From Candidatus Omnitrophota bacterium (GTDB lineage: Bacteria; Omnitrophota; Gorgyraeia; B26-G9), in contig JACQZH010000054.1 of NCBI GenBank assembly GCA_016213925.1, positions 1 to 14,492 on the forward strand: a DNA stretch of 14,492 nt. The letters run 5' to 3'. Of this stretch, positions 2,730-14,492 are shown one piece after another; the stretch's first letter is position 1; the number at the start of each line of letters is the position of its first letter. The notes beneath the pieces are model-generated. The model saw only the letters and a list, made by a program, of their open reading frames with translations, was not told where the DNA came from and did no database searches. The position numbers and the translations under genes are program-made.

Positions 2730-3575
2730 TTAGTCCCTGATTAACTTTTCCGTCGTTCCAATCGGAGTAGGGAAATTAAGCACAACAACATAACTGGAAA
2801 TTATAAAAGTAGCAATCGTAACCAGCTGAATAAGCTGAAAAGCCGGGCTGCTAATGTGCCCAAGTTCCAGAGCCAGAATGGCAATAAGCAGAGAAAATTC
2901 GCTTGATTGCCCCAATCTGAATCCTATTTCTCGGGCAAATAACGGTTTTTCTCCTGTGAAAACAAAAAGCTTTTTGAATACCCAGGGTTTTAATATTATA
3001 CATACCAGCGTTAATATTATTGCCGGAACAATTATCTCTTTCATTATCAAAAAATCCAATTTGGCCCCTAAGGAAAAGAAAAACAATACCAGAAAAAAAT
3101 CTCTCAACGGTTTGAGTTTCTCTGAAATAAAAAATGAAATCCGGTTCTGGGCAATAACCACCCCTGCAAAAAAAGCGCCGGTTTCGTAAAATAGCCCCAT
3201 GCTATTGGAAATCCCGGCAATGCCAAAACACCAAGCCAGCCCCAGGATAAACAATGCTTCCTGCAAACGATCCATATAAGTCATTATCCTGAGCAATACA
3301 AACTGCTCTAGCATTACTAAAACTCCGATAAATAAAATAAGCTTAAGCAGCAGCAAGCCAAAGCTTATCACTGCGCCCTGGGGAGAACCCAGGCAACGGA
3401 TAAAAGCCAGTACTGCTATTGCCATTAGATCCTCTAGGATTAAAACTCCAATACAAATCGCTCCCATTTTCTCCTGGTGCAGCCTGGTTGTCGGCAATAA
3501 TTTAATTGTCAATATTGTGCTCGAAAACATCATAGCCAAGCCAATACTTGAATAACAAGGCAAACGCAAAAGCAA
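2730..3575 (-). CDS. CPA2-family monovalent cation:proton antiporter (KefB-like membrane domain), C-terminal portion. Out of frame with the upstream fragment (frameshift).
   Basis: 'SIGLAMMFSSTILTIKLL...ILEDLMAIAVLAF' matches the KefB/KefC core region (GIGLAMSSTA...LFQDLAVIPALAL, recalled). It is polytopic and hydrophobic throughout. The ORF track starts it at a TTG, and the same frame is open upstream of that to a TAG at about 3599. It overlaps the 3502..3870 ORF by 74 nt in another frame. Confidence 0.75.
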   Translation of the reverse strand: MLLRLPCYSSIGLAMMFSSTILTIKLLPTTRLHQEKMGAICIGVLILEDLMAIAVLAFIRCLGSPQGAVISFGLLLLKLILFIGVLVMLEQFVLLRIMTYMDRLQEALFILGLAWCFGIAGISNSMGLFYETGAFFAGVVIAQNRISFFISEKLKPLRDFFLVLFFFSLGAKLDFLIMKEIIVPAIILTLVCIILKPWVFKKLFVFTGEKPLFAREIGFRLGQSSEFSLLIAILALELGHISSPAFQLIQLVTIATFIISSYVVVLNFPTPIGTTEKLIRD

Positions 3576-3870
3576 TAAAAAATGAAGCTGACGAATTGCC
3601 TAGCGTTACTAAACTGGTTTTTTTAAATAATTCCATCAGTTTTTGCGGATGCAAACACAGCCCGGCAAGAAAAAGAAGCAGGGTTATTCCGATGTGAGAA
3701 ATCGCTTCAATAGATCCGGAATTTTTAATCCAGCCTAACCCCCACGGCCCAGCCAAAATGCCGCAGATAATATAAGCAATTATTATTGGCTGCTTGAATA
3801 ATACCATGACGCATGACAAAACCGCGGAGCCTACCAGGATTATCCCTAATTCGAAAATAAATTTTTCCAT
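3502..3870 (-). CDS. CPA2-family cation:proton antiporter, N-terminal portion (fragment or pseudogene partner of 2730..3575)
   Basis: 'IICGILAGPWGLGWIKNSGSIEAISHIGITLLLFLAGLCLHP' matches the KefB N-terminal signature (LLAGIAIGPWGLGFI...LGVVFLMFIIGLEL, recalled). It ends at a stop inside the next fragment. An A6 homopolymer (plus strand 3577-3582) lies in the region where the frames must switch. It starts 9 nt after the thiM stop, so it is probably co-transcribed with thiM. Confidence 0.7.
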   Translation of the reverse strand: MEKFIFELGIILVGSAVLSCVMVLFKQPIIIAYIICGILAGPWGLGWIKNSGSIEAISHIGITLLLFLAGLCLHPQKLMELFKKTSLVTLGNSSASFFIAFAFALLFKYWLGYDVFEHNIDN

Positions 3871-6012: not shown

Positions 6013-6269
6013 GGCTTCGCCTTAATTGACGATAATTGAGCAACAATCATCTACTTTTATTATACTACTTCCATTACAAAATGATAGCTGATTATTGAGC
6101 AAAATTATTTAAATTAAATTTGAGGTATAAGCTATGCAATTATTTACGGTTTCTGATTCTTGATTTTCGCAGCCCGCAAATTCTCAATTCCTGATTTTTA
6201 GCTTTGAAAGAGCCCTCTCGACTGCTTGCTGCCATTTTTCATAAAACTTTTGATACTACCTTTGGTTTT

Positions 6270-6331
6270 ATTTTTGCTTCGTCCCTCGGTCTTCTATATT
6301 GACTGGGCAATAGCATCTATAGTCTCGATAT
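6270..6331. repeat. Third copy or variant of the mosaic repeat, spanning the giant-gene stop codon
   Basis: It contains cttcgtccctcgg (6277-6289), identical to 14308-14320 but with one TTCGTCC unit instead of two. It also contains ggcaatagcatctatagtctcgat (6306-6330), which resembles ccaatagctatc plus the ctatagtct and tagtcgatgg units of the 10945-11014 tract. The 3' part lies inside the last 12 codons of the giant ORF. Confidence 0.35.
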
Positions 6332-9300
6332 CCGCGTCCTTACGCACAGAAAACTCGTTTTGTTTGAGTATTTCAATCCGCTTTTTCAGGTTAATTCCAA
6401 AATCAAATATCAAAGCATACATCTGCCTGGCAAAACCGCTTTTTGAGTCAAGAGTCAGCGCTTCTAAGGTTTTCCGGTTACCGATAACCGCAGTTTTTTC
6501 CTTAGCCCTGGTAAGGCTTACTAAAAGCAACGCCGGATTAGCAATGATCGTCTCTTCATCAAACAAAAACTGCCGCGTCCTTCCATTGACAAGAGTTCCG
6601 TTACCGCTCTTTTCATTTTTCTTTTTATAAATGTCAGCTTCGTTACTGCGGACCAAAGAAACCAGAGTAATTTTATTTTCTCCTCCCTGGATTTGCTGGG
6701 ATGTAACAACATTTTCTTTAAGAAATTCAATCTCTTCATGAGTAAACTCCGGATCATACTCAATGAAGGATTTGATCAGCTCTATTTGACTGCGGTATGG
6801 CGTAATTATTGTAATATCCTTTACCGTATACGGATTACCATCCTTATTTTTCTTGGTCAAAAATTCCTTTATTTTTCCAAGGATCCAAAGTGCTTCCCCT
6901 GTATTTGAATAACTGCCGGTAACCGGATCCTGTTTTTCAAAAGCCGTATCTTTCCATAAAGAAGTATCGGCTATTTCTAAAGTGTCTTCTTCAAAGGGAT
7001 CATTTTTTTCTTTACTTAAACTTTCAAGCTTAAAATATCCCGCATACCATTTTTGGACCAATTCCACGATTATCCAATGATTACGAAAATTTTTAATTAT
7101 GCTCATTTGAGCATATAATGGGTTATTGATCAGCTGTTCAAAGATGCTCTTTTCGTAACGCGCGATACTGCTTCTCAAATATTTGCCCCCTTCCTGCCTG
7201 AACTTTATCCTTTGGCTGGTGTTAAACTTCGAGATAAGAGAAAAAGGCTTATACTGGATATGGTCTCCGATAAGAAAAAGCGCTTTAGGTTTAAGCAAAT
7301 AAACCGCTGCTATTAATTCCGGGTAATTTATCAGTGCCGCTTCATCGATTACCAAAGTTACGTCTCTTAAATAAACCCGCGACTGCGGGTCATCAAGCAT
7401 GGAGATCAGCCCGTCTAAAGCGCCGCCCATAACTGTTGCCGTTAATATACAGCCGTTTTCATTTGGCTGAATATTAAGCGCGGAAAATCTCCGCTCAAAT
7501 TCTTTTTTCGCTTTTTTCGAATGCCTCGAATAATTTTCCTGGATTTCTTTTTTAAATCTATCCGGCGAGTTCCCGCATCTTAAAACAGGTATGCCCTTAC
7601 TTCCAGTGCGCAAAGTGATCTCGTCGGCAATAACATGCTGGGGAGCGAAAATCAGAACCGGTTTTTTTCTCTCCAGGGCTATTTTTTCAGCAGCGCCGAG
7701 TAAAACTGTTGTCTTTGCCGTGCCTACTCCTCCGTGCAGTAATCCAATACTGTTATTCAGCATAAGATCATTTACTGCTTCCTGACTAAATTCTGCAACA
7801 TTGCTTTTTACCGGTGCATTAAGCCGCAGTATATAATCTAAAACTTCAACTCCTGTTTGTTTGCTTTTTTCAAGTTCCTTCTTTATTTCTTCAAGCGCCT
7901 GCACCTGTATTTTTTCTGACATCGCGTTATACTGCAGGAAAAACCGGGCGGTTCTTAATTTTTCCGGTGTGATCTCAAGAAATCTAATCTTCTGCGTGGC
8001 TGTTCCGGCAGGGACTAAAGTAAGCTTATCACTGCCGATGCCATGAGATATTTTTAACACAAAAGATTCGTCGTTTCCCAAATACATCAAGATCCTGCTG
8101 TAAGCGTCAAACCTTCCGTTTCCATTACTCATTTTAAGAGTAGCCTGAATGCTGATGGGAAATCTTTCAACATTACCGGCTTCTAAAGGCACCAGTTCAT
8201 CCTCTAAACTAATAATTTCCTTAAGCAGCCTAATTTGGCCTTCCAATTCAGCGATCACCTGTCCTGCTTCCAAAAGGTATTTGTTTTTAGCTTCAAAAAC
8301 TTCCCTTTCAGCTTCTGTCTTATCTTCTCCCGCTCCCACCACTGGCTCATTAGCGCCATTTTCTTGTTTCTGGGAATCACCCGGTAAATTATCTTTATTT
8401 TGTTTTGCTTTAGGCAATGCCGGCTCTTCTCTGACGGCTTCACCTAAACTTGTTACCTGCCTGCGTATCTTAGGATACTCCTTTCCCCTAACGCTGAAAA
8501 TTTTTACCTCAGCACGCAAGTCATTAACAGCTTCAAGCAAAGTCCTGTAAGCTTCAGGGTCTATTTCTTGTTTTCTAGACTCCAGCTGCGAGTACACATT
8601 ATCAACCAATAACCTCTCCAATTTCTGTCCTTTTACTTCCTGATCCTTTCTAAGACGAAACTCAACTCTAACTTTTTCAGGATTGTCATCTTGTGTGTTA
8701 TGCACAATGGGCGAAGCAACCGGTATTGTATTTTCTTTTGGCGCGGCAATAACAGATACTTCCGGTTTTTGAAGCACAACAACTGGGATTTCCTGTTTTT
8801 TGGACAGTTCTTTAACTGAAGGTTTAGATTTTTTCTTTTTGTGAGTTACTGCTTTTTTCTCTGTAGGGGGTTTCCTGGATTTTTCAATCTTTAAGATAAA
8901 CTCAGCGAATTTTTTCTTAAAATCATTTATTATCAGATTCCTGCGGACATCTTTATTCTCGGATAAATCGTCAACCCTGTTAAGTGTTTCTTTTAGCAGT
9001 ACTTTCGGGCTCGGCACTAAGTTCGGCTTGAATTTTTTATGTTTAAATAATTTCTGAAGCGCTATTCTTGCTTTAAACTCATTTCTTGCCAGAATTTTAG
9101 CCAGTGTATATATCTCTTCATCGGTTATCTTTTCCCGGAAATCTTGATTCAAACGCTCATTCAAAACCTGAGTCAACACTATAGTCATAACACGCTGCAC
9201 AGCGAGTTTTCTGGCTGTAAGCCAGCCGAATATTCCCATAGCGCCTAAAACAACCAGTGCCGTTGAACTGCTGACAAGTTTTTTATTTTTCTTTGCCCAG

Positions 9301-10829
9301 TTGGAAAAGTTTTTCGACTCAAAAAACTCTTTAATATCATAGAAGAAGGAAAGCCTCTTTCTATCCTCGCGCTGGATATTATACGCCTGCTCTGCGATCC
9401 GGATTATTTGCTCATAATCCAGCGTAAAGAACTGGCCGGCGATCTGAGCCCTAGGTTCAATATATGACAACGGACTTATTCTAATATCAGGAAATTCAGC
9501 AATATGACGTTCAATATAATCGATCATATTATTAAGAATAGTTATTTTTGCTACTGTTTCTTCAGGTAGGATTTCTGTTGATTCAGGGACGCTTATTAAA
9601 TGCAGCATTTCAATGTCAATGAATTCTTCATCGCAGTAAAGCATAGCATCAAGCCTGGCCTCGACTTTCAATCCTGCGCTTTCACGGGCCTGCAGGTCAT
9701 TGACTCTTGAGCCATTCCATAGCGCTACTCCGCTCTTATCCTCGGCAATTAAACCCTGCTGATACCGGTTCCGGGAGCGCATCCAATTAATAATATCCTG
9801 CTTGGTAAAATAGTGGTTTTTTACTCTGCTTAATATTTTTACCTGGCAGAAAGTCAACGGGGTCAAATGCTCTTTATTGCCTAGCAAAAGATACTTATCC
9901 CACGGTATTTCCTGGGCATTCTTGACAAATTCCCAGCTTGTTTGGTTTAATTGATCAATAAAATCCTGAGCATTTTCTTCGACCCTGGACATGCAGACAG
10001 CCACGTTCCCATGGATCACCTTGCCTATAGCCGGATAAATTTCAAGTGACATAACCTCTTTGTCCTCTGTCTCAACCGGTATTATAAGCAGCTCATCCAT
10101 AGTTACAGATCCGTCTTGTTTATCTAAGCTAAAAGGCACGACATCTTTGACCTGGTAAAGTTCAAAATTCCCTACAATCATCGGAGCAAGCTTTCCTTTT
10201 TTCCAAATCGGTATAAATTCAGAATGTAAGATAACCCCGTATCCGGCCAAATATTCGGGCACCAGCTCAAACATCAGTTTTCTCCAAAGAGCTTCCTGAT
10301 CCTGTGCTATTGCCTCAGGCAATAGAGCCTTAAAATCAGTCCCTGATAATTCAAGAATTTTCTTAACTAAATTATTTTTTAATTCAGTAAAAGCTTCTGT
10401 TTTAGGACGGGCAATAGTTTCTTCATCTTTTCTTACTAGTTTTTTATATTTCAAAATAAAATCAGAAATTGACTTAACCACCTGAACCGCCTGTTCATTT
10501 TGAAAAAAACAATCCTCATCAAACGCCTTGTATTTAATACGCAGTTGAGCAATGCTATTACCCTGTTCCTTTGATTCGGACTTTTTCTCGGCTAAAGCGG
10601 GGATAAATAAGGATAAGAACTCTCTGCGGGATCTTGAAGCTAAATCTTCTCTTTTATCCTGGCTAAAAGAAGTAAATACCTGCCTAATATAGGCATTATC
10701 GATTTGCACAGTAGGGGCAAGAAAACTATCCGCGTTAGAGCAGAGTTTTCCGTTTGCCGCCTGAGCAATATCAAGCACCAGGAAAGCCTGTATCAATAGT
10801 ATTGAAATTAGTTTTAATAATCTATTCAT
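6294..10829 (-). CDS. Giant multidomain protein (1511 aa). Domain order: signal peptide, unknown N-terminal domain of about 490 aa, one TM helix, Lys-rich and coiled-coil linker, then a C-terminal Upf1/DNA2-like superfamily-1 helicase.
   Basis: A continuous 4.5-kb ORF in AT-rich DNA. Residues 1-27 (MNRLLKLISILLIQAFLVLDIAQA|ANG) are signal-peptide-like with an AxA site. The TM helix is about residues 519-541 (ALVVLGAMGIFGWLTA). A K-rich tract runs over residues 655-690. SF1 helicase motifs are present: I LHGGVGTAKTT (1031-1041); II VIDEAA (1160-1165); III FLIGDHIQYKPF (about 1185-1196); V ITPYRSQ (1342-1348); VI LLLVSLTRAKEKTAVIGN (1434-1451). Motif spacing and sequence match the Upf1-like AAA_11/AAA_12 arrangement (recalled consensus GPPGTGKT, DEAxQ, GDxxQLPP, TxxxYQG, VALTRAR). 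No SD precedes the ATG. Confidence 0.8.
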   Translation of the reverse strand: MNRLLKLISILLIQAFLVLDIAQAANGKLCSNADSFLAPTVQIDNAYIRQVFTSFSQDKREDLASRSRREFLSLFIPALAEKKSESKEQGNSIAQLRIKYKAFDEDCFFQNEQAVQVVKSISDFILKYKKLVRKDEETIARPKTEAFTELKNNLVKKILELSGTDFKALLPEAIAQDQEALWRKLMFELVPEYLAGYGVILHSEFIPIWKKGKLAPMIVGNFELYQVKDVVPFSLDKQDGSVTMDELLIIPVETEDKEVMSLEIYPAIGKVIHGNVAVCMSRVEENAQDFIDQLNQTSWEFVKNAQEIPWDKYLLLGNKEHLTPLTFCQVKILSRVKNHYFTKQDIINWMRSRNRYQQGLIAEDKSGVALWNGSRVNDLQARESAGLKVEARLDAMLYCDEEFIDIEMLHLISVPESTEILPEETVAKITILNNMIDYIERHIAEFPDIRISPLSYIEPRAQIAGQFFTLDYEQIIRIAEQAYNIQREDRKRLSFFYDIKEFFESKNFSNWAKKNKKLVSSSTALVVLGAMGIFGWLTARKLAVQRVMTIVLTQVLNERLNQDFREKITDEEIYTLAKILARNEFKARIALQKLFKHKKFKPNLVPSPKVLLKETLNRVDDLSENKDVRRNLIINDFKKKFAEFILKIEKSRKPPTEKKAVTHKKKKSKPSVKELSKKQEIPVVVLQKPEVSVIAAPKENTIPVASPIVHNTQDDNPEKVRVEFRLRKDQEVKGQKLERLLVDNVYSQLESRKQEIDPEAYRTLLEAVNDLRAEVKIFSVRGKEYPKIRRQVTSLGEAVREEPALPKAKQNKDNLPGDSQKQENGANEPVVGAGEDKTEAEREVFEAKNKYLLEAGQVIAELEGQIRLLKEIISLEDELVPLEAGNVERFPISIQATLKMSNGNGRFDAYSRILMYLGNDESFVLKISHGIGSDKLTLVPAGTATQKIRFLEITPEKLRTARFFLQYNAMSEKIQVQALEEIKKELEKSKQTGVEVLDYILRLNAPVKSNVAEFSQEAVNDLMLNNSIGLLHGGVGTAKTTVLLGAAEKIALERKKPVLIFAPQHVIADEITLRTGSKGIPVLRCGNSPDRFKKEIQENYSRHSKKAKKEFERRFSALNIQPNENGCILTATVMGGALDGLISMLDDPQSRVYLRDVTLVIDEAALINYPELIAAVYLLKPKALFLIGDHIQYKPFSLISKFNTSQRIKFRQEGGKYLRSSIARYEKSIFEQLINNPLYAQMSIIKNFRNHWIIVELVQKWYAGYFKLESLSKEKNDPFEEDTLEIADTSLWKDTAFEKQDPVTGSYSNTGEALWILGKIKEFLTKKNKDGNPYTVKDITIITPYRSQIELIKSFIEYDPEFTHEEIEFLKENVVTSQQIQGGENKITLVSLVRSNEADIYKKKNEKSGNGTLVNGRTRQFLFDEETIIANPALLLVSLTRAKEKTAVIGNRKTLEALTLDSKSGFARQMYALIFDFGINLKKRIEILKQNEFSVRKDADIETIDAIAQSI

Positions 10830-10868
10830 AACAGAGGGTAAAGTATACCTGATTTTAATATTATATGC

Positions 10869-10904
10869 AAAAAAAGAGGAGTCTCCTCAGAAACCCCACT
10901 CCTC
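10869..10904 (-). terminator. Rho-independent terminator (minus strand) ending the upstream membrane-protein/esterase operon, about 40 nt before the giant-gene start
   Basis: Minus-strand read: GAGGAGT-ggggtttct-GAGGAG-a-CTCCTC-TTTTTTT. Two alternative stems (7 bp with a 15-nt loop, or an inner 4-6 bp stem) are followed by T7. It lies between the 7-bp-periodic repeat tract and the candidate giant-gene promoter. Confidence 0.5.
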
Positions 10905-10944
10905 AAAATTATGAGAATAATTATATAAAAGAATAGGTTGCAGT

Positions 10945-11014
10945 TCTATAGTCTATAGATTATGGCCGATGGATAATAGTCGATGGCCAATAGCTATCAG
11001 CTATTAGCTGATTT
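10945..11014. repeat. Degenerate heptamer tandem tract (10 units, consensus about nYnATrG) containing a perfect palindrome ATCAGCTA-T-TAGCTGAT
   Basis: Phased 7-mers read directly: tctatag|tctatag|attatgg|ccgatgg|ataatag|tcgatgg|ccaatag|ctatcag|ctattag|ctgattt. The G at position 7 is present in 9/10 units, the T at position 5 in 9/10, the A at position 4 in 8/10. It contains the palindromes CTATAG, ATAGCTAT and the 17-bp ATCAGCTATTAGCTGAT (10996-11012). It is intergenic between the P1 stop (11081) and the giant-gene start (10829). Confidence 0.55.
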
Positions 11015-11080: not shown

Positions 11081-11872
11081 TTACACTGATATTTGTTTTT
11101 TGGAAACAATCCGGTTTAAAAGAAGTCCCAGCGCAGCAAGCGTCGTAATAATAACATGCGGCCTAACTGCCTTTCCACTGACAAACAAGGGATGTATATT
11201 GTGGCCCGTTCCAGGTAAAAAGAAAAATAAAACGAGAAAAAACAAAACCATGAAACACGCCAGCACATCAAGAAACTTATTAGGCTTAAAAGGCGCAGGC
11301 TCAACTTTATTTTTTATATTTGACGTAATAATACTACGAAAAAAGCGAGCAAAAATTAACGTAAGAGTCAACATAACAAAAAACTGCCAAGCAGTAACCG
11401 GCGGCCTAGCAAGAAGCCTAAAACTGGTGCTAATTAAAACATAGGCTGTAAAAAACCAAAATATGCCCGGCTTAGATAATAGCGGTTTAGACCGGTCAAC
11501 ATCCGGATTAAGCCGATGGCCTATATATAAAGCAAAGACCGTTTGCAGCGTTGTCCACCAAACCAGATTATTTATGAATAAGATCCTAAAGCTTATCCCA
11601 ACGATAACAGGCGGAATAGGATAATAAACGCCTGCAACACTTATCAATTGCCAAAGCAGGCCGAAAAATTGAGCCACAATCCAAACCTGATAATCTTTAA
11701 GTTTAAACCGTCCTATAAAGTCTTCGATAAGGACAAGATAAGTAAAATAATTTAAGAAAACAAGCAAAGATATAAAAGGGAATCTCAAGAAATGATTACA
11801 TCCTCTTAGCGCATACTCCGCCAGAAAAGCAAAACATGAAGCGATAAAAATCACTCTCCAACGCTTGTCCAT
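11081..11872 (-). CDS. Polytopic membrane protein, paralog of the adjacent upstream gene. Family uncertain; weak CPBP/Abi-like 'EYxxRG' motif.
   Basis: Hydrophobic multi-TM protein, paralogous to 11887..12564 (LVLIEDFIGRFKLKDYQ vs SIVEDLIRRFKITNLQ; LFINNLVWWTTLQTV vs LFINVVWWGSLQSV; C-termini KKQISV vs KKQISI). The track ORF extends to 11956 but would then overlap the upstream paralog by 70 nt. The internal ATG at 11872 (MDKRWRVIF...) has an SD-like AAGGGGAAG upstream and lies 14 nt after the upstream gene's stop, so it is the more likely start. Confidence 0.65.
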   Translation of the reverse strand: MDKRWRVIFIASCFAFLAEYALRGCNHFLRFPFISLLVFLNYFTYLVLIEDFIGRFKLKDYQVWIVAQFFGLLWQLISVAGVYYPIPPVIVGISFRILFINNLVWWTTLQTVFALYIGHRLNPDVDRSKPLLSKPGIFWFFTAYVLISTSFRLLARPPVTAWQFFVMLTLTLIFARFFRSIITSNIKNKVEPAPFKPNKFLDVLACFMVLFFLVLFFFLPGTGHNIHPLFVSGKAVRPHVIITTLAALGLLLNRIVSKKQISV

Positions 11873-12564: not shown

Positions 12565-12724
12565 ATTAAAAAATACCGCCGCTAGAATAATCTTTGTTTT
12601 TCATACCCTTGCTATCTTTTAAGTTAGGATACAACTAACTATAATTTAATTCGATGGCTCTGATTTTTTACACAAAAACCTAATTCCTACGGCATCAAAA
12701 GCAGAACCCTGGCACTTCGCTTTC

Positions 12725-13792
12725 TCATTTAGGATCTCCGTAAGAGAGAGCCCCTCTGTTATTCTTTGATTTAAAAAATCCCCAAATCTCATCAGCCGCT
12801 TCAATGTCATTATTTTGGTTTCCGACTAACGCCAGAAATAGTTTGGAATAATGTTCTTTAATGCTTGGCTCCGTATGCCCTCCCCCTCTTATTTCATAAA
12901 GCACGACATCAGTATTAGTCTTATTATTCCTATAAGTTTTGCATACAACTGTACTGCCATCAATTTTTGTTTTATCAGGAAATTCCTTTATCAGAAAATT
13001 AGAATCGCAATTATTCTGTTCCACCCAATAGCGGATTGACTCTTCAGTTGACAAAACTTCTCCGCGGTTACCCGCCATTTTCCCTCCACTGTAAGGACAG
13101 AGTTTATCCTTTGTCCCATTCATCAATAATACAGACACTGGCATGGATGGCTTTTTCTCAAAATTAGGATATGGATTAGAAGCAGCTATTGCAGCCACGG
13201 CACAAAATGTTTCTGAAGCATCAGAGGCAAGCTGGAGTGCCATATGCCCGCCATTTGATGTGCCCATTGCATAGATTCTTTTACGGTCCACAGGGTATGA
13301 TTTTGCTGTAACTTCAATAAGATGTTTTAAAAATCCAATATCATCATTACTTTCTATATTTCGGGCATCGTTCCAGCCTCGTTTGCCATCCGATCCGACG
13401 ACCCCGTTTGGTATGATTAAAATAAGCTTCTCTCTGTCTGCAATGGATAGCCAAAGCTTATAGGGGGATTTATATCCCGTTTTACCAAACAATTGGCCGG
13501 CATTTCCATTATGCCCATGAAGCAAAAATACAACTGGGCGAGGGGTATCATTTATCCCTTGTGCAATATAAAGGTCATATTGGCGCTGTAATCCGTCAAC
13601 ATTTAGTTGAAGATTCATAAAAAGCTTCCCTGTTTCAAGGCTGTCTTGGGCCATTGTAGTTTGAGCTTGTCTCTTTTTCCAGAAATTTCTCAACTGTTCC
13701 CTTTTTATCCCAAATTCCTCTTGAGCAATAATATGCTGTGTAAAATTTACAGATAAAATTATAATGATAAAAATAACTTTTAGAATTTTCAT
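12725..13792 (-). CDS. Secreted alpha/beta-hydrolase, LpqC / poly(3-hydroxybutyrate)-depolymerase-family esterase
   Basis: 355 aa. N-terminal signal peptide (MKILKVIFIIIILSVNFTQHIIAQ). VVFLLHGHNGNAG oxyanion-region block. Nucleophile elbow GTSNGGHMA (GxSxG). C-terminal GGGHTEP block with a candidate catalytic His. This is the pattern of COG3509/LpqC-type esterases (recalled family features). It lies 25 nt downstream of the small membrane gene, so the two likely form an operon. Confidence 0.75.
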   Translation of the reverse strand: MKILKVIFIIIILSVNFTQHIIAQEEFGIKREQLRNFWKKRQAQTTMAQDSLETGKLFMNLQLNVDGLQRQYDLYIAQGINDTPRPVVFLLHGHNGNAGQLFGKTGYKSPYKLWLSIADREKLILIIPNGVVGSDGKRGWNDARNIESNDDIGFLKHLIEVTAKSYPVDRKRIYAMGTSNGGHMALQLASDASETFCAVAAIAASNPYPNFEKKPSMPVSVLLMNGTKDKLCPYSGGKMAGNRGEVLSTEESIRYWVEQNNCDSNFLIKEFPDKTKIDGSTVVCKTYRNNKTNTDVVLYEIRGGGHTEPSIKEHYSKLFLALVGNQNNDIEAADEIWGFFKSKNNRGALSYGDPK

Positions 13793-13817: not shown

Positions 13818-14252
13818 TTATTTAATGAACAATGAAACAATACTCACAGTAAAGCATAAAATACTCATTAGAGAAAAAATAACTATGCCCATATCAAACG
13901 TCGAGAAAGAAAAATTACCGATCTTGCAACAATAAGCGATGTCTGACTCTGCGGGATTTAAAGGGTTAAATAGGATTTCAATAACATCGCCCTTTTTATA
14001 CTTATTCGGATTTATCCCAATAGACGGAGTTCCGCTGTATTGCCTGCCCTCATAGGAGTATTTATATTGGGGATAGTAGGCGCTGCCGCTTTCAATAAGC
14101 GGTTCGCAAGAGATTTCGCAGACAACAGCTTGGGCTTTTTCCCACTGGCTTAGTTTTTTCTTTTTATTTTTAAAATAATTTACCAGGATAAGCGGCATAA
14201 ACCCGCCGAAAAAAAACATTACAAAAAAGATTGTTTGTGTTGACTGGTTCAT
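13818..14252 (-). CDS. Small two-TM membrane protein, DUF3592-like (assignment tentative)
   Basis: 144 aa. N-terminal TM (IFFVMFFFGGFMPLILV) and C-terminal TM (MGIVIFSLMSILCFTVSIVSLF) flank a domain of about 90 aa that is probably beta-rich (QWEKAQAVVCEISCEP...GDVIEILFNPLNP). This architecture is recalled for DUF3592. A weak SD AGGT sits 9 nt upstream. The heptamer-periodic repeat with an ATCAGCTA half-site lies immediately upstream. Confidence 0.55.
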   Translation of the reverse strand: MNQSTQTIFFVMFFFGGFMPLILVNYFKNKKKKLSQWEKAQAVVCEISCEPLIESGSAYYPQYKYSYEGRQYSGTPSIGINPNKYKKGDVIEILFNPLNPAESDIAYCCKIGNFSFSTFDMGIVIFSLMSILCFTVSIVSLFIK

Positions 14253-14262
14253 ATTAATTACC

Positions 14263-14346
14263 TAGTATAGTCGATGGATTATCAGCCATCAGCTAATTTT
14301 CGTCCTTCGTCCCTCGGGTTACTATGAACTCATGAACTATGAGCTC
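14263..14346. repeat. Heptamer-periodic intergenic repeat related to the 10945-11014 tract. Shares ATAGTCGATGG and ATCAGCTA, and carries an exact tandem TTCGTCC duplication.
   Basis: agtatag|tcgatgg|attatca|gccatca|gctaatt|ttcgtcc|ttcgtcc|ctcgggt, then ATGAACTcATGAACT. The 11-mer atagtcgatgg plus ATCAGCTA 9-10 nt later matches 10975-11003. cttcgtccctcgg matches 6277-6289. It starts 10 nt upstream of the 13818..14252 start codon. Confidence 0.45.
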
Positions 14347-14492
14347 GCTCTACATTTGCTTCAAACACGCCTTTGACAAGCTCACTAGAGAAATACTGCA
14401 AATCAACTTTATACTTTTCTGCTTTCATAAAATAAATATTTCTTTGTCTTCTAATATCTTTACATTTTTAAACAAGCCGGGATATTTTGGGG

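Follow-up and report, generated by a model that had tools for sequence, protein, structure and literature searches.

Heptanucleotide period in two intergenic spacers of a Candidatus Omnitrophica contig and its bearing on a proposed dispersed repeat family

Introduction

Short blocks of identical sequence recur in several intergenic spacers of the DNA analyzed here (the window), a stretch of 14,492 nt that is one entire contig of a Candidatus Omnitrophica (Omnitrophota) metagenome-assembled genome (MAG). An inspection of the letters alone (the sequence-only reading) had taken these spacers for a mosaic family of dispersed repeats at three or four sites and had suggested that they share a regulatory role, or that they are mobile or recombinogenic boundary elements bracketing a giant helicase gene. 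Are the spacers related at all, and if so, does their likeness call for such an element? We address this at four sites, referred to as A (10944-11013), B (6277-6331), C (12651-12666) and D (14253-14346, the extent over which it was compared). The reading that we favor, with a probability of about 0.55, is that A and D are short, decayed heptanucleotide tandem arrays in spacers between co-directional genes.

Gene context of the sites

The minus strand carries every sizeable open reading frame (ORF) of the window, and "sense" denotes that strand in all gene-sense readings (Table 1). Site A is non-coding, preceded by the upstream ORF, which stops at 11081, and followed by a terminator (10897-10869), whereas D occupies a non-coding spacer directly upstream of the DUF3592 start codon. 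A presumably belongs to a 3' untranslated stretch ahead of the terminator, and D would stand directly before the start codon in the transcript. The 32-aa ORF that precedes D is a gene call in an identical Logan contig (L001), and its translation confirms it; its final 17 nt fall inside the interval 14263-14346 that had been assigned to the repeat.

A search of 5.8 billion proteins gave no homologue at E<1e-30 for the helicase that the proposed elements were thought to bracket. Residues 978 to 1458 are the only part matching a known model, that of the helicase portion of MkoA, a Mokosh defence protein, and the N-terminal ~970 residues have no match in Pfam or PADLOC. The GC content of the gene resembles that of its neighbors. 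Relatives found through ThiM (75 to 79% identity) have no gene order in common with the window. Because synteny is not shared, the helicase has no close homologue and the best esterase match is only 59% identical, no orthologous spacers are available for comparison. Two short Logan contigs of the same strain are both identical to the window; the sole overlapping one, L001, comes from another run and matches over 881 nt at 100% identity, and no length polymorphism was seen.

Table 1. Genes and sequence features of the window, listed in the direction of transcription
Feature	Position	Strand	Remarks
Partial gene off the right end	first in transcription order	-	3' end overlapped by the 32-aa ORF
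32-aa ORF	14330-14428	-	ATGA overlap with the 3' end of the upstream gene
Site D	14253-14329	-	77-nt spacer from the 32-aa ORF to the DUF3592 ATG (14252)
DUF3592 gene	ATG at 14252	-	after the 32-aa ORF in transcription order
Esterase	12725-13792	-	PHB-depolymerase-like; after the DUF3592 gene
Site C, TCGATGG and CTGATTT, 2 nt apart	12651-12666	-	sense AAATCAG AG CCATCGA
Two proteins without Pfam match	between esterase and helicase	-	
Perfect palindrome 8+1+8, ATCAGCTATTAGCTGAT	10996-11012	.	inside A, from AGCT-containing units
Site A, ten degenerate heptamers	10944-11013	-	period-7 scan
Intrinsic-terminator-like hairpin GAGGAGACTCCTC, then TTTTTTT	10869-10897	-	between A and the helicase ATG (10829)
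1511-aa SF1-type (AAA_11/AAA_12) helicase/ATPase	6294-10829	-	accession MBI4846524.1
CAATAGC and CTATAGTCT	6306-6330	-	within the part of the 1511-aa ORF that encodes the C terminus
Site B block CCGAGGGACGAAG (sense)	6277-6289	-	4 nt 3' of the TAG stop (6296-6294) of the 1511-aa ORF
PAS-GGDEF protein, then ThiM	after the helicase in transcription order	-	
Split Na+/H+ exchanger	2730-3870	-	after ThiM
SPFH protein, then gene off the left end	last in transcription order	-	

Shared blocks and their chance level

All blocks quoted in the sequence-only reading are present in the window, at offsets of at most 3 nt. ATAGTCGATGG occurs at 10976-10986 in A and at 14267-14277 (plus strand) in D, and ATCAGCTA, which is also found twice on the minus strand, follows at 10996-11003 and 14288-14295, with gaps to ATAGTCGATGG of 9 and 10 nt; the pair can be written TAGCTGAT-N9-10-CCATCGACTAT. 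CTTCGTCCCTCGG lies at 6277-6289 and at 14305-14317 (previously placed at 14308-14320), and CTATAGTCT at 6317 and 10946. Among the shorter blocks, TCGATGG is at 12651 and CTGATTT at 12660, the window contains 8 copies of CAATAGC and, on the two strands together, 11 of CTGATTT, and TTCGTCC stands at 14299 and again at 14306, as opposed to one occurrence at 6278. Direct exact matches of at least 11 nt number 95 in the window, and its dinucleotide shuffles contain ~80 identical 11-mer pairs and ~6 identical 13-mer pairs; with base rates this high, no single block is remarkable alone.

Pairwise local alignment of the true intergenic regions in sense orientation, compared with 3000 dinucleotide shuffles, separates the proposed links more sharply. 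A and D align with a score of 33 over ~39 nt, which none of the 3000 shuffles reached (maximum, 30; Gumbel p of 6e-5), and B and D with a score of 28 over ~30 nt (p of 3e-4 to 6e-4, uncorrected). After correction for ~42 comparisons, these two are the only survivors (~0.002 for A-D and ~0.02 for B-D). The A-B alignment (p of ~0.06) and those of A-C and C-D (p of ~0.6 to 0.7) are at chance level. Exact matches from spacer to spacer number 5 at 11 nt or more and 2 at 13 nt or more in the window, against 0 to 1 and 0, respectively, in seven comparison loci, and this excess gives the earlier general impression of related spacers some basis. The claim that the links go beyond chance thus stands for A-D and B-D and falls for A-B and for every link to 12640-12670.

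A family of three or four sites does not emerge from these comparisons. The stretch 6297-6331 lies inside the 1511-aa ORF (6294-10829), and its two blocks in common with A (6306-6330) come in reverse order relative to A; they are chance matches. Site C lacks period 7 and aligns significantly with neither A nor D, and for its two 7-mers the intergenic excess is only marginal. What remains of B is the 13-mer at 6277-6289, identical to 14305-14317 in D. The best B-D alignment consists of this 13-mer and a 2-nt gap with weakly similar flanks that diverge right after the 13-mer, which contradicts the earlier view that the two copies differ by exactly one heptamer. D is nevertheless mosaic in the sense first proposed, one part of it resembling A and another the sequence just after the stop codon of the giant gene, both above chance. 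The family is therefore partly confirmed, in that it shrinks to two heptamer arrays that share units and one 13-mer of uncertain meaning; the remaining proposed links are chance.

Some sense motifs are many-fold enriched in spacers compared to coding DNA, namely, AAAATCAG in four spacers and CCATCGA in three. The four copies of AAAATCAG in sense orientation (2588-2602, 6187-6199, 10842-10858 and 12656-12669, all on the minus strand) read as AAAAATCAGGAAT in two cases, and the motif is found once only in 13 kb of coding DNA. Measured against shuffled spacers, an 8-mer in at least four regions has a p of ~0.05, and GC-containing 7-mers in at least three regions have a p of ~0.08; a bipartite motif of AAAATCAG and CCATCGA linking A, C and D is only marginal by this measure, and we do not claim it. 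Two other candidates were set aside. A tetranucleotide bias cannot be the cause, as none of AGCT, TCGA and GGCC is unusual in the window, and a read-through or coding role of CCGAGGGACGAAG fails because the 13-mer, judged from the sequence, sits in different frames relative to the two upstream stops.

Period-7 structure of sites A and D

Site A gives the strongest period-7 signal of the whole window. Its units read, in sense orientation, AATCAGC TAATAGC TGATAGC TATTGGC CATCGAC TATTATC CATCGGC CATAATC TATAGAC TATAGAA, and at lags of 7, 14 and 21 nt the identity between positions reaches 0.55, 0.52 and 0.49, respectively, compared to ~0.2 at other lags (p<0.001). Phasing of the units reveals a conserved lattice, with C in column 7 (10 of 11 units), A in column 2 (9 of 11) and T in column 3 (8 of 11), a count that includes CTGCAAC (10937-10943), just outside the site. 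Tandem Repeats Finder (TRF) reports a period of 14 with 2.8 copies at 10948-10986, i.e., a 14-nt higher order. No unit of A is perfectly repeated, and identity from unit to unit is ~55%. Perfect 8+1+8 palindromes such as that at 10996-11012 are expected about 0.2 to 1 times by chance in 14.5 kb, by estimate. Folding of A is not better than that of shuffles (z = -0.95), and a BLAST search of spacer A against plasmids gave no match.

Site D (lag-7 identity, 0.43; p<0.001) consists of three tandem duplications of 7 to 8 nt plus CCATCGACTAT. On the plus strand these are ATCAGCC ATCAGCT (14281-14294), one mismatch apart; TTCGTCC TTCGTCC (14299-14312), the only perfect repeat, in two copies; and ACTATGA ACTCATGA ACTATGA (14321-14342), of which only the start lies within the 14253-14329 spacer. 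It is because D is a string of three separate small duplications that it looks mosaic. TRF reports a period of 8 at 14324-14346, and its scores at A and D are 32 to 43. The folding of D (z = -2.4) reflects a local hairpin only.

Both sites thus combine a head-to-tail period of 7 nt with a non-coding location. Replication slippage, which the sequence-only reading had named from the doubled TTCGTCC, may have produced them: the tandem duplication of this heptamer in D (two copies, against one at 6277-6289) is real, and tandem heptamers dominate A. Under this model, slippage would duplicate 7-nt units, plus 14-nt double units in A, and point mutation would then blur them. A and D would draw on a related set of units (in sense orientation, AGCTGAT or TAGCTGA types together with CCATCGA or CGACTAT types), and such a set would account for exact blocks of 8 to 11 nt in common at similar spacing. 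In the A-D alignment, AAATCAGCTAATAGCTGATAGCTATTGGCCATCGACTAT stands opposite AAATTAGCTGATGGCTGATA---AT---CCATCGACTAT with the indels inside repeated AGCTNAT units, which would amount to two kinds of unit in common with a differing amount of repeat between them. Any effect of the arrays on the expression of the flanking genes is equally a matter of inference. The model does not explain the B-D match, as there is no array at the B 13-mer and the B spacer shows weak period 7 at 6141-6200 only; the 13-mer reflects either a short stretch of shared descent or a fortuitous match.

Searches for further copies

Within the contig, the A/D blocks occur at no other site at up to 2 to 3 mismatches, the extra matches being reiterations inside arrays A and D. 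We searched for the composite ATAGTCGATGG-N8-11-ATCAGCTA in 596 Gb of species-representative genomes, a collection that does not include the source MAG, and obtained three matches, none from Omnitrophota. The first is coding, the second, with a borderline lattice, is intergenic in a Saccharibacteria MAG, and the third belongs to a clear heptamer array in a Ferruginibacter MAG (AATAGTC AATAGCT GATAGAC CATAGTC CATCGAC TATGATC) that runs across a stop codon and takes up most of a 53-nt spacer. A slightly relaxed composite had 29 matches in the JGI metagenomes, 25 of them in long open frames and none with period 7, so that essentially all are chance or coding. As no copies of the composite turned up beyond chance matches and arrays, public data give a dispersed A/D element no support.

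Nor do the sites read as known RNAs. A covariance scan of the window against Rfam 15 returned a single match at E<=1, an irrelevant miRNA model at 1127-1193, and no tRNA or tmRNA was found in the window. RNA readings of the sites were accordingly rejected, there being no Rfam family, no tRNA and no fold of A beyond shuffles.

Weighing of alternative explanations

One alternative is that the blocks share neither origin nor function, being the tail of oligomers common to similar AT-rich spacers and picked post hoc. The counts of exact matches in the window and its shuffles, the chance level of C and of the A-B link, the marginal motif tests and the lack of further copies in large collections all favor it. 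We nevertheless consider it unlikely, given the significance of the A-D and B-D alignments and the excess of spacer-to-spacer matches over the comparison loci; the period-7 structure of A cannot be chance. A common promoter or operator is quite unlikely. It would make A and D sigma-70-type promoters whose spacer block binds a common regulator, with the downstream units co-regulated, and both sites do have, in sense orientation, CTGAT(A/G), a 16- to 17-nt spacer ending in CCATCGAC and then TATTAT or TATACT. A consensus scan reads CTGATA-16-TATTAT at 11000-10973 on the minus strand (9 of 12 matches), D by eye has CTGATG-17-TATACT ending 11 nt before the DUF3592 ATG, the helicase gene has a similar TATACT 12 nt before its ATG, and the 17-nt palindrome in A could be an operator. 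Yet promoter matches in the window show no excess (46 versus 39 +/- 8 in shuffles), the -35 hexamer of D fits at only 3 of 6 positions and the scan does not report it, and a transcript from A would meet the terminator after ~70 to 100 nt, before the helicase gene. Moreover, the same composite occurs in the Ferruginibacter array, and promoters of Bacteroidota have a different consensus. The period-7 lattice, which extends well beyond two hexamers, would be left unexplained. Upstream of both the helicase gene (10842-10871) and the DUF3592 gene (14252-14269), on the minus strand, TATACT ends 11 to 12 nt before the ATG and there is no clear Shine-Dalgarno sequence, which, if the hexamers are -10 boxes, would imply near-leaderless mRNAs for both genes.

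Highly improbable, in our view, is a decayed mobile or recombinogenic element of the miniature inverted-repeat (MITE), REP or BIME kind that marks the boundaries of gene cassettes, the orphan helicase among them. The location of the blocks at gene boundaries agrees with it, and a helicase without homologues at E<1e-30, matching MkoA with its C-terminal part only, fits an acquired gene, although the GC content of that gene is like that of its neighbors. Like A and D, REP, BIME and MITE sequences are short, intergenic and found at gene ends inside operons. However, elements of that kind are imperfect palindromes or have terminal inverted repeats, measure 30 to 300 nt between defined ends and number tens to hundreds of copies, and none of these traits is seen here. 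Neither terminal inverted repeats nor target-site duplications are visible by eye at the sites, the longest 25 of the 232 listed inverted-repeat pairs include none that brackets A, B or D, the shared blocks do not exceed 13 nt, and Rfam has no match in the region. A and B, which were supposed to bracket the helicase, are not significantly similar to each other, and copies of the composite in the 596 Gb of genomes and the JGI data are limited to chance or coding matches, the one Ferruginibacter array and the one borderline Saccharibacteria spacer. A/D is probably not a transposable or REP-like element. The main result for this contig is in that respect negative, and annotation need not invoke a mobile or boundary element around the orphan helicase.

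Relation to known heptanucleotide repeats

Heptamer repeats have, to our knowledge, not been described before in Omnitrophota; so far the class has been recorded in cyanobacteria, giant sulfur bacteria and Bacteroidetes. The arrays at A and D appear to fit known heptamer repeats in period, location and mixed composition, and they are far more degenerate than the published examples: D has two-copy duplications only, and the units of A are ~55% alike. Mazel et al. in 1990 reportedly described the cyanobacterial short tandemly repeated repetitive (STRR) heptamers CCCCAGT, TTGGTCA and CAACAGT. Like A and D, STRR sequences have a period of 7, are intergenic and come in several unit types, and AATAGTC differs from the rotated STRR3 unit AACAGTC at a single position. 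Unlike A and D, they are long, near-perfect, very numerous per genome and known only from cyanobacteria, and we do not claim that A and D belong to the STRR family.

Another parallel is offered by intergenic TAACTGA direct repeats, which are found in Beggiatoaceae, Cyanobacteria and Bacteroidetes, often mixed with other units and often just before start codons; strains differ by indels in 7-nt steps, and a role in translational regulation was put forward (PMC4679880). These repeats (MacGregor 2015, PMC4679880) resemble A and D in being tandem 7-nt units in spacers, often mixed. Like many of them, D ends a few nucleotides before a start codon, as does an array in a relative (see below). The units TAGCTGA and TGGCTGA of the window are one and two mismatches, respectively, from TAACTGA, and TAGCTGA itself has not been found as a direct repeat in the Beggiatoa genome (PMC4679880, Table 3). 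In TAACTGA arrays a single unit is repeated perfectly 2 to 43 times, and a genome has tens to hundreds of such sites, whereas no unit of A or D is perfectly repeated more than twice, two sites are known in the contig and the host is a member of Omnitrophota. More generally, heptameric repeats are abundant in bacteria (PMC4692102), and heptanucleotides are the commonest long simple repeats in prokaryotes, with slippage proposed as the cause, according to the account of Mrazek 2007 in PMC4679880. Long simple sequence repeats (LSSR) with 7-nt units, as described there and in PMC4692102, share with A and D the unit length, the preference for non-coding DNA and the slippage model; LSSRs are, by definition, runs longer than statistical expectation, and A and D, degenerate or short as they are, would not qualify. 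Heptamer repeats near start codons in Nostoc have effects on the expression of recF and recO (bioRxiv 10.1101/2022.06.06.494920).

Similar arrays in relatives and viral contigs

We scanned ~92 kb of Omnitrophota DNA, reached through the ThiM homologues, for period 7. Three regions exceeded the threshold, one of them coding, and the two intergenic ones were A and a stretch of an Omnitrophota relative (L006:893-969; ENA contig k141_229160); with only three such regions, these arrays are not abundant in Omnitrophota. In the relative, the array fills a 72-nt spacer between two pstB-like ABC ATPase genes. Its units read AATAGTC GATAGTC AATAGTC TAT..., followed by the partly complementary TATCGAC CATAGAC AATAGAT, so that it could form a hairpin, and it ends 7 nt before an ATG.

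Viral contigs supply more examples. In IMG/VR, stretches of three tandem units number 86 for ATAGTCN, 105 for ATAGCTN and 48 for ATCGACN, compared to 21, 31 and 46 for three composition-matched control units, so that units of the window type are only 1 to 5 times commoner than control heptamers. Tandem heptamers are common in viral contigs in general, and those of the ATAGTC and ATAGCT types are moderately more so. Among 48 non-redundant ATAGTCN contexts, 11 have at least two heptamer classes side by side, and 28 are not covered by any open frame of at least 80 aa. In one group of gut phages, a ~200-aa ORF and a rho-independent terminator flank (GACTATC)n, which sits exactly between the stop codon and the terminator; site A has the same order of stop codon, array and terminator. 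The end of this ~200-aa ORF already has a degenerate CGACTNT periodicity. The repeat (ATAGTCG)n, equivalent to (GACTATC)n, is present in dozens of the viral contigs (L047-L132), for example at L048:10181-10200, L050:4662-4688 and L055:11311-11330. A further contig (L126), which contains HIP1, has three copies of CAACGGT beside three of CAATAGT.

These occurrences bear on another reading, in which A and D, and perhaps AAAATCAG...CCATCGA at 12651-12669, are the local members of a NATAGTC/NATAGCT/NATCGAC family spread across phyla and phages that acts on the transcript. Located between stop codons, terminators and start codons, the arrays might then, for example, provide a platform for a protein that binds RNA or DNA. 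We regard this as very doubtful. If it held, Omnitrophota would have a regulatory device in common with Bacteroidota, Cyanobacteria and many phages. For the heptanucleotide arrays that we favor, the wider interest is more modest: should ATAG- and ATCG-type arrays prove frequent in Omnitrophota, a puzzling repeat class would extend to another phylum. The phage arrays between stop codon and terminator, which are frequent, may be the more useful lead.

Other features of the contig

Several observations concern the rest of the contig. The Na+/H+ exchanger is represented by two overlapping ORFs (3870-3502 and 3575-2730) that match consecutive parts of PF00999, which indicates a frameshift, due either to a pseudogene or to an assembly error. 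Named homologues of the esterase are 36 to 54% identical and the best unnamed matches 59%; the named ones come mainly from Bacteroidota (Maribacter, Aurantibacter) and a Leptolyngbyaceae cyanobacterium, not from Omnitrophota, with a few from Proteobacteria and one from an Acidimicrobiia MAG. Bacteroidota and Cyanobacteria are also phyla with documented heptamer repeats. The palindromic tetranucleotides ACGT (9 observed versus 49 expected), GTAC (12 versus 49) and CTAG (16 versus 49) are strongly depleted in the window, possibly through restriction avoidance. Directly 3' of the SPFH gene, at 1136-1186, lies an inverted repeat of 19 nt with 95% complementarity (GTAAGCAAAAAACCCGCAG / CTACGGGTTTTTTGCTTAC) that resembles a bidirectional intrinsic terminator and coincides with the sole, spurious Rfam match.
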